From NCBI GenBank assembly GCA_041665005.1, contig JBAYJR010000009.1, positions 203 through 64,202 of the forward strand: DNA of 64,000 nt, written 5' to 3'. The DNA comes from Candidatus Buchananbacteria bacterium (lineage in GTDB: Bacteria > Patescibacteriota > Patescibacteriia > 2-01-FULL-39-33 > JBAYJR01). The notes under the pieces are model-generated. The model was not told the DNA's origin, made no database searches, and worked only from the letters and a program-made list of their open reading frames with translations. Made by a program: the position numbers and the translations under genes. The stretch's first letter is position 1; each line of letters opens with the position of its first letter. Of the stretch, positions 28,635-30,618 are shown in pieces.

Positions 28635-28961
28635 ATGTATTTAATTAAACGAGCAAAAGATCAGTTAATTAAGCTACTTTTAGGGAATAAAGCAGTACCA
28701 AGGGGCCTCTTTGATTTGGGTCACTATTTCAGCATATATGGGCCTATTACATTTAAGGAAGATAATGTAAGTGGCAAGATTATAGCCATGAGTACTAATT
28801 TCAAATATGGCTCAATAGTTACTTCAGGAAAAGATAAAACAGAATTGGATAAGAACATTAAAGATGCTATATTGACTTCTTTTGAAGTTCCCTCCTCCTA
28901 TGCAAAAGAAGCAAGACTGCGAAAAGTAGCAGGGGAGCAGATGGAGTATGCCCTCGCTTAG
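28635..28961 (+). CDS. Hypothetical protein, possible HicB-like antitoxin partner
   Basis: 108 aa, overlaps the HicA-like ORF by 14 nt (translational coupling); antitoxin role is only positional inference. Confidence 0.35.
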   Translation: MYLIKRAKDQLIKLLLGNKAVPRGLFDLGHYFSIYGPITFKEDNVSGKIIAMSTNFKYGSIVTSGKDKTELDKNIKDAILTSFEVPSSYAKEARLRKVAGEQMEYALA

Positions 28962-29193
28962 TCAATTACCAGGCAATACGAGAAGAGCAGAATTAATCAA
29001 GGCGCTCCGGCGTCTTGGTTTTATTATCAATAAAGCTGGCGGTAACGGCAGCCACTATAAAGTTACGTGGCCCAGAACTCAGAAGTCAGTCACCATACAG
29101 TCTGATTTAAGAAAAGACGTGTTAAGCTATGTCTTAAAGGAAATAGAGGCATATAGTGGCATTACTTGGGAGGATATAAAAAAAGAACTATAG
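28948..29193 (+). CDS. hicA: HicA-family (YcfA-like) mRNA-interferase toxin
   Basis: 81 aa; …LIKALRRLGFIINKAGGNGSHYKVTWP… matches the HicA dsRBD-like core with conserved G-S-H. Confidence 0.65.
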   Translation: MPSLSQLPGNTRRAELIKALRRLGFIINKAGGNGSHYKVTWPRTQKSVTIQSDLRKDVLSYVLKEIEAYSGITWEDIKKEL

Positions 29194-29208
29194 AAATAAG
29201 ACAAATTT

Positions 29209-29979
29209 ATGTTTGATTCAAAATTAGCTCAGAATAAATACATTGTAGAAAATTATCAAGAAATAACCGATAGTCGCATAGATGACGATCATTGGGATAT
29301 TCCTTGCACAAGATGTAAAGTTGTGCGAGGTTTTGTCGTAACTGAGAAGAGCCGAAGTTATGATAGTACTAAATACGATTCGCAGATATCACTAAGCCAT
29401 CCCTATACCATGACATTTCATTGTCCGGTGTGTAAACTCTTTAAACTCTGGGTCGTTTTTAAACTTGACTTTATAGAGACCAGAGAGGATGGAGAAAAGT
29501 ACAATGTTAAAAAATACTATAAGGTGACTTCTCTGCCCGGTGAAGGAATAGAAGATATTGACGAATTACCGGTAGAACCACCTTCTTTAAGGGTTGCCTA
29601 TAAACAAGCGATTAGAGCCATGGATGCTAATGCTTATATTGCGGCGGCAGCCATGTTCCGTCGAGCATTACAAATTATCACCAGAGATATATTAGGCGTA
29701 ACTCCAGGAAATCTAGGTACTGAATTAATGGAAGCAGTGGGTAAAAAGTATAACGGTGCGACGATAACAACTGATTTTAGTGATATCGGGTATATAATTA
29801 AAGAAGCCGGTAATCAAGGCGCACATCCCGATCAAGATTCAGATCTATTGGATTTTTCTCCAGAAGATGCATACGATTTACAAAAGATTTTTATGGAGTT
29901 AGTAAGTGATCTTTTTGTTGTTCCGGTAGCAAACAAAAAGACACGAGAAGATTTCTTAAAACGAAGAAAGATTCAATAA
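29209..29979 (+). CDS. Zinc-ribbon (CxxC…CxxC) + C-terminal DUF4145-like helical domain protein; candidate defense/abortive-infection effector
   Basis: N-terminal …CTRCKVV…HCPVCKLF…; C-terminal …AYIAAAAMFRRALQIITRDILG… …GNQGAHPD… resembles DUF4145 as I recall it (not verified); starts 15 nt after hicA. Confidence 0.5.
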   Translation: MFDSKLAQNKYIVENYQEITDSRIDDDHWDIPCTRCKVVRGFVVTEKSRSYDSTKYDSQISLSHPYTMTFHCPVCKLFKLWVVFKLDFIETREDGEKYNVKKYYKVTSLPGEGIEDIDELPVEPPSLRVAYKQAIRAMDANAYIAAAAMFRRALQIITRDILGVTPGNLGTELMEAVGKKYNGATITTDFSDIGYIIKEAGNQGAHPDQDSDLLDFSPEDAYDLQKIFMELVSDLFVVPVANKKTREDFLKRRKIQ

Positions 29980-30030
29980 TATATTTATTATTTCCGCATC
30001 ATCCCTTAGCTTTAATATTAATAAAAATAT

Positions 30031-30618
30031 ATGGGATTATTCTCGTCACCAACAGAAAGACAATTGGAAAAGCATTATATTGAAATGTTTATAAATACAG
30101 TTGGTCTACCACCAACTGAGGCCACAAAGACTGTTAAAGATATTATTGCTAAAGCAAAACAAATAATTAAACAAACCGGGGAAGACAAATTTCCTGCAGA
30201 CATAGCAGAAAGAATTATTTCTGATCCGAAAATGGGGCCCGCATACGAAAGGAGAATTAAAGAAGGAGTCAGAGACGAAGATATCAGATGGTGGTGGAAT
30301 TTACAACCACTAGAAAGGCATGTAATGTTACAAGTTGATGAACTTCATAGGATGGCTTTATTTATAGAAAAAATGAAGGAGGGCAAGTCAGCAGAAGAGG
30401 CAGCGGCGATAGGAAGAAAATATCATCCGATGTTTGGTGATACTAATGATACTACTCATACGAGTGGTGATGATAGGCCTCTTCCAGAAGAGTTAAAAGA
30501 CAGGATAAATATTTACATTGAAAAGCGAGGAAAAACTGAAGAATTTAAACAAGATATAGAGAAATCAACAACCCTCAACGCCTTAATAAGAAAAGAAATT
30601 AAGGCAGGTAACCTATAA
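30031..30618 (+). CDS. Hypothetical protein (195 aa)
   Basis: Clean ORF with no motif I recognise; ends 4 nt before repeat copy 1. Confidence 0.5.
   Translation: MGLFSSPTERQLEKHYIEMFINTVGLPPTEATKTVKDIIAKAKQIIKQTGEDKFPADIAERIISDPKMGPAYERRIKEGVRDEDIRWWWNLQPLERHVMLQVDELHRMALFIEKMKEGKSAEEAAAIGRKYHPMFGDTNDTTHTSGDDRPLPEELKDRINIYIEKRGKTEEFKQDIEKSTTLNALIRKEIKAGNL

Follow-up and report, generated by a model that had tools for sequence, protein, structure and literature searches.

We analysed a cluster of four small genes in a 64,000-nucleotide (nt) stretch of a Candidatus Buchananbacteria contig (JBAYJR010000009.1), hereafter called the window. The cluster is probably not one system but a patchwork in which three autonomous units, perhaps transcribed from a single promoter, lie side by side. 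In our judgement the three units are likely to be a HicA module of the type carried by bacteria of the candidate phyla radiation (CPR), a divergent member of the RAZR family of phage-defence RNases, and an orphan gene, all lying beside an element at a tRNA-Trp gene. The cluster consists of the following features, where aa stands for amino acids and ORF for open reading frame.

28635-28961, plus strand: 108-aa ORF, putative HicA partner or antitoxin
28948-29193, plus strand: 81-aa ORF, HicA-family toxin, predicted RNase
29209-29979, plus strand: 256-aa ORF, RAZR-like protein, distant PD-T7-4 homolog
30031-30618, plus strand: 195-aa ORF, all-alpha protein of a large uncharacterised family, independent gene
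28581-28609, plus strand: promoter-like site TTTACA-17 nt-TG-TATACT, 26 nt 5' of the 108-aa ORF

A first-pass annotation of this DNA had described four packed, co-oriented ORFs, and its positions, the 14-nt overlap and the gaps of 15 and 51 nt were all exact. Database searches at E<=1e-3 returned 451 homologs for the 108-aa protein, 309 for the 256-aa protein and 435 for the 195-aa protein, mostly full-length and at 45-75% identity. Identical proteins are on record from a metagenome-assembled genome of a Candidatus Buchananbacteria (CPR/Patescibacteria). As the homologs number in the hundreds and mostly cover the full length, the ORFs are real genes and not chance products. The promoter-like site agrees with the consensus at 10/12 positions and carries an extended -10 element. 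Such sites are no commoner in the region than in shuffled sequence (14 seen vs 17.8 expected), and the site is thus only a candidate, which could be the start of a common transcript for the four genes. No terminator-like site was predicted between the four genes, and their co-transcription is possible.

Co-occurrence of the gene families was surveyed by tblastn and profile searches of 131 fetched loci, in which the 256-aa family was represented by 38 loci, the 195-aa family by 83 and the 108-aa family by 8 (later 11). A HicA-like gene accompanied the 108-aa homolog in 8/8 of the surveyed loci and directly followed it in 11/11 with the later ones, and relatives of the 256-aa or 195-aa proteins were near the pair in 0/11. 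Likewise, relatives of the window 108/81 pair were found in 0/38 loci of the 256-aa family, and relatives of the 108-, 81- or 256-aa proteins near 195-aa homologs in 0/83. No recurrent partner emerged when the neighbours were clustered and the flanking proteins (109 and 101) were scanned with Pfam. The first-pass proposal of a single undescribed four-gene system, together with its expectation that homologs co-occur across genomes, is therefore not supported: close relatives of the window genes from different units never stood together in the 38, 83 or 11 loci, and only two loci, L028 and L039, repeat the combination in part.

The 256-aa protein is, by sequence comparison, a distant but genuine homolog of RAZR. 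DUF4145 was placed in the HEPN RNase superfamily in 2013, when fusions with zinc ribbons were already listed (PMC3710099). PD-T7-4, a 'Zn finger-HEPN' single gene that often overlaps integrase genes, came from a functional phage-defence screen in 2022 (PMC9519451). In 2026 it was renamed RAZR, for ring-activated zinc-finger RNase; as a 24-mer, the protein of E. coli UMB1727 (PDB 9Y9C) assembles on phage proteins that are ring-shaped (portal, Gp77), and it cuts single-stranded RNA non-specifically (PMC13017515). The substitutions R146A and H154A abolish defence by RAZR, and its zinc-finger domain, which is more variable than the RNase domain, sets the trigger specificity (PMC13017515). The architecture of the 256-aa protein had thus been described already in these three reports, from 2013, 2022 and 2026. 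Its domains and motifs are as follows.

29209-29538, plus strand: N-terminal Cys4 zinc-ribbon sensor domain, aa 1-110
29305-29433, plus strand: two zinc knuckles, C33-x2-C36 (29305-29316) and C72-P-x-C75 (29422-29433)
29578-29979, plus strand: C-terminal DUF4145/HEPN RNase domain, aa 124-256, with a linker before it
29800-29826, plus strand: predicted HEPN catalytic motif K198-E-A-G-N-Q-G-A-H206 (K-x7-H)

The pairing of a zinc ribbon with a DUF4145 domain, read off the sequence in the first-pass annotation, was borne out by a Pfam DUF4145 match at residues 133-225 (29.4 vs the curated cut-off of 23.1) and by invariance of the CxxC...CxxC cysteines. In addition, phrog_1305 matches the protein over its full length at 6e-24. 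An alignment of 40 family members gave 55-65% identity across CPR lineages, Syntrophobacteraceae and others. Alignment A2 consists of close homologs only; the broadened A4 (20 rows) includes 9 divergent ones. C33, C36, C72 and C75 are invariant in 40/40 close homologs and in 20/20 rows of A4. Invariant or nearly so are, besides the four cysteines, the AAAAMFRR helix and the motif K-E-A-G-N-Q-G-A-H-P-D, in which N202 and H206 are invariant and position 198 is K in 38/40 and R in 2/40 homologs. The mean column entropy is 1.72 bits for residues 1-110 vs 0.78 for residues 124-256, and hypervariable loops in the sensor domain lie at residues 50-65 and 84-100. In the AlphaFold2 (AF2) model, beta-hairpins surround both zinc knuckles.

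PADLOC gave no match for the four window proteins, and the reading drawn from this blank, that no known defence family is present, was overturned by the divergent homologs. The PD-T7-4 hidden Markov model (HMM) matches six of these nine (E 1.1e-7 to 3.4e-5; 25-48% identity to the window protein), one match covering profile positions 15-196 of 211; PD-T7-4 was the only system that came up when members of the 256-aa family were scanned with PADLOC. Searched against PDB with hmmsearch, profile A4 found 9y9c_OA (E 3.5e-4), which is the chain of RAZR and occurs there in 24 copies. RAZR residues 9-187 were taken from this A4/9y9c alignment, the numbering of which reproduces the published A68-G69-N70, R146 and H154. 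Comparison of A2 with these residues by hhalign gave a probability of 93.4% and an E of 2.4e-7 over 141 columns. In the hhalign register C33xxC36 falls on C16xxC19 of RAZR and C72PxC75 on C49xxC52; the linker, which is rich in proline, pairs with that of RAZR, and K198...H206 with R146...H154 (ICRIVGNQAVHP). Compared directly by BLASTP, the window protein and RAZR are 28% identical (E 2e-5) along 95 residues of the HEPN domain. On these HMM, profile, hhalign and BLASTP results the homology is regarded as genuine.

Several points weigh against this assignment. The link between the window protein and RAZR is missed both by the PADLOC PD-T7-4 model and by profile A2 against PDB, and it thus needs divergent intermediates or profile-profile comparison. 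Foldseek of the model of the 256-aa protein against PDB gave no significant match, and RAZR was not listed. The catalytic Arg of RAZR is Lys in the window protein, so that activity is not assured, and the zinc-ribbon domain is larger than that of RAZR by about 45 residues, so that the trigger and the geometry of assembly may be different.

The 38 loci of the 256-aa family were obtained from exact-protein look-ups (8) and from contigs taken at one genome per species (30). They span Saccharibacteria, Niyogi-, Adler-, Kaiser- and Kerfeldbacteria and Paceibacterota, and also Alpha- and Gammaproteobacteria, Acidobacteriota, Syntrophobacteraceae and Bacteroidota. No neighbour recurred in these loci beyond redundant contigs, and the 109 flanking proteins include DnaG/RpoD, ribosomal proteins and a few defence-type proteins (HEPN, Ymh, MvaI/BcnI). 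Serine recombinases were located at most 6 kb from the 256-aa homolog in 6/30 genome loci, and directly adjacent in one of them (L034). ORFs with DnaG and RpoD domains flank the RAZR-like gene in three loci (L022, L032 and one more), pointing to a spot where insertion recurs. L022 and L032, which are from Alphaproteobacteria, have two long co-oriented ORFs whose ends lie directly 5' of the RAZR-like gene.

The 256-aa protein might instead bind nucleic acids or have a regulatory role, or be a HEPN protein that is inactive and has only the fold in common with RAZR. We consider this quite unlikely. The family that it matches is labelled 'DNA binding protein' in PHROG, and the canonical HEPN Arg is Lys in 38/40 homologs. 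The identity of 55-65% across phyla extends to much of the N-terminal domain and is unusual for fast-evolving defence genes; many homologs are surrounded by housekeeping genes, for example dnaG-rpoD and genes for ribosomal proteins. Furthermore, tblastn against cultured phage and plasmid records gave no match for the 256-aa protein, and scans of IMG/VR found no relative of its family. The PHROG label is, however, an automatic annotation, and Lys is a conservative replacement for Arg, which two homologs do carry. N202, H206, the GNQ motif and the helix bearing R151 are invariant and align with the essential residues of RAZR. The family is scattered over CPR, Proteobacteria, Acidobacteriota and Bacteroidota, with recombinases often close by, as mobile defence genes typically are.

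Taking the 256-aa protein as a RAZR homolog, we infer its mechanism from RAZR, with the homology and the architecture as obtained in this analysis. It would act as a single-gene abortive-infection RNase. The variable zinc-ribbon domain may recognise a phage protein, the triggers of RAZR being ring-forming proteins such as the portal. Binding of the trigger would lead to oligomerisation and thereby position the HEPN dimers, and the predicted K198/N202/H206 site would then cut single-stranded RNA non-specifically, so that translation is shut down and the infection aborted.

The first two genes are predicted to form a HicA-type toxin-antitoxin (TA) module typical of CPR bacteria. The 81-aa protein passes the Pfam HicA_toxin model (PF07927) with 33.3 bits vs the curated cut-off of 27, its residues 14-70 matching profile positions 2-56 of 58, and it matches phrog_353 'toxin' at 2.9e-7. 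The G-S-H core, from which the first-pass annotation had recognised HicA, is present as G34-S35-H36 and is kept across the family; His36 occurs in all members and aligns with the His of E. coli HicA. The start of the 81-aa gene overlaps the end of the 108-aa gene by 14 nt, pointing to translational coupling, and where gene calls or tblastn starts exist for other loci of the 108-aa family, they give the same overlap. The 451 homologs of the 108-aa protein come mostly from CPR bacteria and are 56-70% identical over the full length.

The 11 pair loci represent six settings besides the window, that is, five named CPR lineages and one viral contig; 8 loci belonged to the first survey, and three more lineages were added later.

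L009-12: Azambacteria, pair flanked by SHMT and ThyX
L013-15: Magasanikbacteria, pair flanked by HD and TrmB
L131: IMG/VR viral contig
L141: Falkowbacteria, pair upstream of lepA; HicA frameshifted, partner intact
L142: Portnoybacteria, pair at holA/rpsT; HicA intact though not called as a gene
L143: Uhrbacteria, pair in the ddl region

In the Falkowbacteria locus (L141, 4311-4552) HicA, downstream of the intact 108-aa homolog, is split by a frameshift, which reflects either a decayed toxin or a sequencing error. A decayed toxin with a retained partner is a pattern typical of TA pairs. Judged from gene content and context, the 108/81 pair is a module of two genes that behaves autonomously.

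The predicted role of the 108-aa protein as HicA partner is well supported by this conserved pairing. The name 'HicB-like', which it had been given, is weakly supported by its sequence. With hhalign, residues 36-84 align with E. coli HicB 3-48, in its N-terminal toxin-binding domain, at a probability of 30%, and the same region aligns with a 9-sequence HicB profile at 20%. The motif KDA(I/L)LT(S/A)F is common to the 108-aa protein and E. coli HicB, and the 108-aa family profile matches the canonical HicB of L028 at E 0.004. These matches weakly suggest a HicB N-terminal fold in the partner. Neither the 108-aa nor the 195-aa protein has a match in Pfam, NCBIfam, PHROG or PADLOC, in accordance with the earlier statement that neither carries a motif that can be placed. 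Pfam HicB models match 0/33 members of the 108-aa family, and a profile search of the 108-aa protein against PDB sequences gave no match. The assignment of the partner to HicB is opposed by the lack of a significant HicB match for the 108-aa protein, by a custom HicB profile that did not retrieve the family, and by the absence from Pfam and NCBIfam results of any DNA-binding domain of the helix-turn-helix (HTH) or ribbon-helix-helix (RHH) type; about 24 residues remain after the HicB-like core.

The pair has also to be weighed as a conserved cellular RNA-processing pair of CPR bacteria, outside addiction and defence. Its conservation across CPR classes is unusually high for a TA pair (57-70% for the partner; for HicA about 64-67% by tblastn, or more), it lies amid housekeeping genes (lepA, polA/holA, thyX, ddl), and it has no detectable DNA-binding domain for autoregulation. 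Such a role is nevertheless improbable. Each lineage has different flanking genes, a sign of mobility; a viral contig carries one copy; one lineage combines a frameshifted toxin with an intact partner, as in typical TA decay; and the HicA fold and the catalytic His are conserved. As a TA module, in keeping with the family assignment and the conserved pairing, HicA would cleave RNA via the conserved His and cause growth arrest, and the translationally coupled 108-aa protein would bind and neutralise it.

The 195-aa gene stands by itself as an accessory gene; the all-alpha family to which it belongs is large and uncharacterised. The family comprises 909 clusters at 50% identity with E<=1e-3, of which 340 reach E<=1e-30; most members are about 200 aa long, and their sources are genomes of CPR bacteria and Deltaproteobacteria as well as contigs of metagenomes. 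The AF2 model is all-helical, with a pLDDT of 93.2, and no match was found in Pfam or PDB, nor any PDB fold match to the model. No neighbour recurs in the 83 loci, the commonest neighbour cluster being present in 7, and IMG/VR scans found no relative of the family, as opposed to one relative of the 108-aa family. In two related proteins, P0420 and P0432, the 195-aa domain stands at the C-terminus of a GT2 glycosyltransferase, and in P0361 it is fused to an N-terminal membrane anchor of three helices. Rare as they are, these fusions hint at a role linked to the envelope and not at defence of the nuclease type. As a best guess, the protein would be a self-sufficient accessory factor.

Two further readings are conceivable, namely that the 195-aa protein is a new single-gene mobile-element system, for defence or counter-defence, and that the RAZR-like clade uses a different class of trigger or a different assembly than E. 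coli RAZR. The former is based on the size of the 195-aa family, its confident but unmatched all-alpha model, its lack of annotation, and the gene being always stand-alone and sometimes next to serine recombinases, the latter on the enlarged, partly conserved zinc-ribbon domain and the active-site Lys. These readings are unlikely.

Among all the loci, L028 and L039, both from Paceibacterota, come closest to the arrangement in the window. In L028 (6001-7576), ribosomal protein genes are followed by a RAZR-like gene and then by genes for a HicB-like (110 aa) and a HicA-like (77 aa) protein. This is the only further HicBA pair that a custom HicA/HicB profile found beside a RAZR-like gene; it is a canonical HicB/HicA pair, unrelated to that of the window, with the antitoxin first as in the window. 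L039 (5-6759) contains a serine recombinase 33% identical to that of the window and, 2.6 kb upstream of its RAZR-like gene (44% identity), a truncated 195-like gene of 140 aa (profile E 2.5e-11), and it may be a related element with overlapping cargo. Against a patchwork stand these two loci, by repeating part of the combination, and the tight spacing with one candidate promoter, by making co-regulation possible. Partial repeats are, on the other hand, as expected from small defence or TA patches on related elements and not from a conserved system.

That the four genes work together as a single integrated system of defence or addiction, for example with HicA as effector, the zinc-ribbon/DUF4145 protein as sensor and the 195-aa protein as accessory, is very improbable and, for lack of co-occurrence, largely refuted: co-orientation, the 14-nt overlap, the short gaps, the single candidate promoter 5' of the cluster with no predicted terminator between the genes, and the arrangements in L028 and L039 all speak for it, but the families are overwhelmingly apart (0/83, 0/11 and one locus each of 38), the TA pair of L028 belongs to a different, canonical HicBA subfamily and lies on the other side of the RAZR-like gene, RAZR works as a single gene (PMC13017515, PMC9519451), and the neighbours of the 256- and 195-aa families are heterogeneous and often housekeeping genes. 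The anti-phage role proposed for the cluster keeps its ground for the 256-aa gene, where homology supports it well, and loses it for the four genes as one system.

The surroundings of the cluster include the following features.

24811-24882, plus strand: tRNA-Trp, left end of the integrated element
24870-26339, minus strand: large serine recombinase, 489 aa, with Resolvase, Recombinase and Zn_ribbon_recom domains
26367-27251, minus strand: HUH rolling-circle Rep, 294 aa, PF23343, PHROG 'replication initiation'

The end of the serine recombinase gene overlaps the 3' end of tRNA-Trp, and the HUH Rep gene comes next. From tRNA-Trp, recombinase and Rep together, an integrated rolling-circle replicon begins at tRNA-Trp. 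At 25-27 kb the GC content is down to 0.32-0.34 and the sign of the GC skew is reversed. PF23343, to which the Rep belongs, is the family of inovirus/plectrovirus G2P/ORF2 proteins. The order 5' of the element is tRNA-Thr, tRNA-Tyr, tRNA-Thr, a short, putatively rpmG-like ORF, so labelled from the sequence, and tRNA-Trp. The right end of the element was not located, as no direct repeat of the tRNA-Trp end was found, which is as expected for serine recombinases; the one other contig with the same locus comes from the same organism and gave no help with the right end. The four-gene cluster is probably cargo of the tRNA-Trp element. Of the earlier placement inside a mobile element, the left-side context is thus confirmed, while the inside position itself is likely only.

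Directly 5' of the cluster and on the same strand is a 312-aa ORF (27578-28516, plus strand), for which no match was found in Pfam, NCBIfam, PHROGs, PADLOC, PDB sequences or any fetched locus. Its N-terminal part (…YINGYYSCALRQKGKC…) gives the impression of a recombinase zinc ribbon, for which no support was found.

Two kinds of repeat were observed downstream.

30623-30645, 31147-31169 and 31766-31788: 23-nt box GTTCCAACRTTGYMCCAYARCGC, 3 copies, nowhere else in the window
31228-31262, 32494-32528 and 33971-34005: 35-nt module of hairpin, T-run and TGGTATAAT (terminator, then extended -10 promoter)

The three copies of the 23-nt box compare with 0.01 expected by chance. Three consecutive genes (195-aa, 116-aa and PEMT-like) each have one copy a short way past the stop, and every copy is followed by a different hairpin, an arrangement that looks cassette-like. 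An Rfam search of 30.5-31.95 kb at relaxed thresholds gave no match for this repeat. It was rejected as an integron attC because it lacks the attC core sequence, and as a recombinase att site because the box is absent from the tRNA-Trp end of the element. The three copies of the 35-nt module, 71-89% identical, lie between consecutive genes downstream of the cluster. Farther downstream (34324-35730) a 468-aa metallo-beta-lactamase/beta-CASP/RMMBL protein of the RNase J/CPSF-like type is encoded. The contig annotation holds for it a weak precomputed Pfam match, 'Anti-Pycsar_Apyc1', which most likely reflects merely the common metallo-beta-lactamase fold.

The RAZR-like clade, both well conserved and divergent, numbers over 300 members, which are spread over CPR/Patescibacteria, Acidobacteriota, Proteobacteria and Bacteroidota. 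As the current PD-T7-4 HMM misses the window protein and 3/9 divergent homologs, defence censuses that rely on it probably undercount the family. With Lys for Arg and a larger sensor domain, the clade offers natural variants for the model of ring-templated activation and, if it does use a different trigger or assembly, would extend ring-templated immunity to episymbiotic CPR bacteria. The pair defines a CPR-wide HicA module whose partner has no DNA-binding domain, and the family of the 195-aa protein is flagged as a large one of about 200-aa proteins, with a confident model and an unmatched fold, that deserves a name. Tight packing by a TA pair beside mobile-element genes is in itself no evidence of a functional system.

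Among known systems, the 108/81 pair is to be compared with hicA/hicB of E. coli K-12. Common to both are a toxin of HicA fold with a Gly-Ser-His region and a translationally coupled gene for a small partner, and residues 36-84 of the window partner weakly resemble the HicB N-terminal domain. The window pair differs in gene order, with the partner first and the toxin second. Its partner lacks the C-terminal HTH/RHH domain and any match to HicB models, and has instead a conserved N-terminal segment of 35 residues. The window HicA is 81 aa long vs 58 for that of E. coli, and BLASTP gives no match between the two.

For the 256-aa protein, the comparison extends to BxaP (PMC10799925), Ishtar (bioRxiv 10.64898/2026.07.06.735840) and the DUF4145-restriction fusions (PMC3710099). 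These likewise use a DUF4145-type HEPN domain as presumed RNase effector against mobile elements, but in them DUF4145 is N-terminal or is fused to HEAT, beta/alpha, restriction endonuclease or helicase modules, and none carries an N-terminal zinc ribbon. RAZR is the nearest known system. The window protein differs from it in an identity of only about 23-28%, in being missed by the PD-T7-4 HMM, in length (256 aa vs 219 aa), in a zinc-ribbon domain of about 110 aa vs about 65 that has one additional helix at the N-terminus and a long, variable beta-hairpin, in the Lys for the catalytic Arg, and in its host, a CPR bacterium. In both proteins an N-terminal Cys4 zinc ribbon, a conserved linker and a C-terminal DUF4145/HEPN domain follow one another in register, with the motif (R/K)-x3-G-N-Q-x2-H-P, predicted to be catalytic in the window protein, and a sensor domain more variable than the RNase domain. 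Both are encoded by stand-alone genes with no conserved partner, frequently with recombinase or integrase genes nearby.

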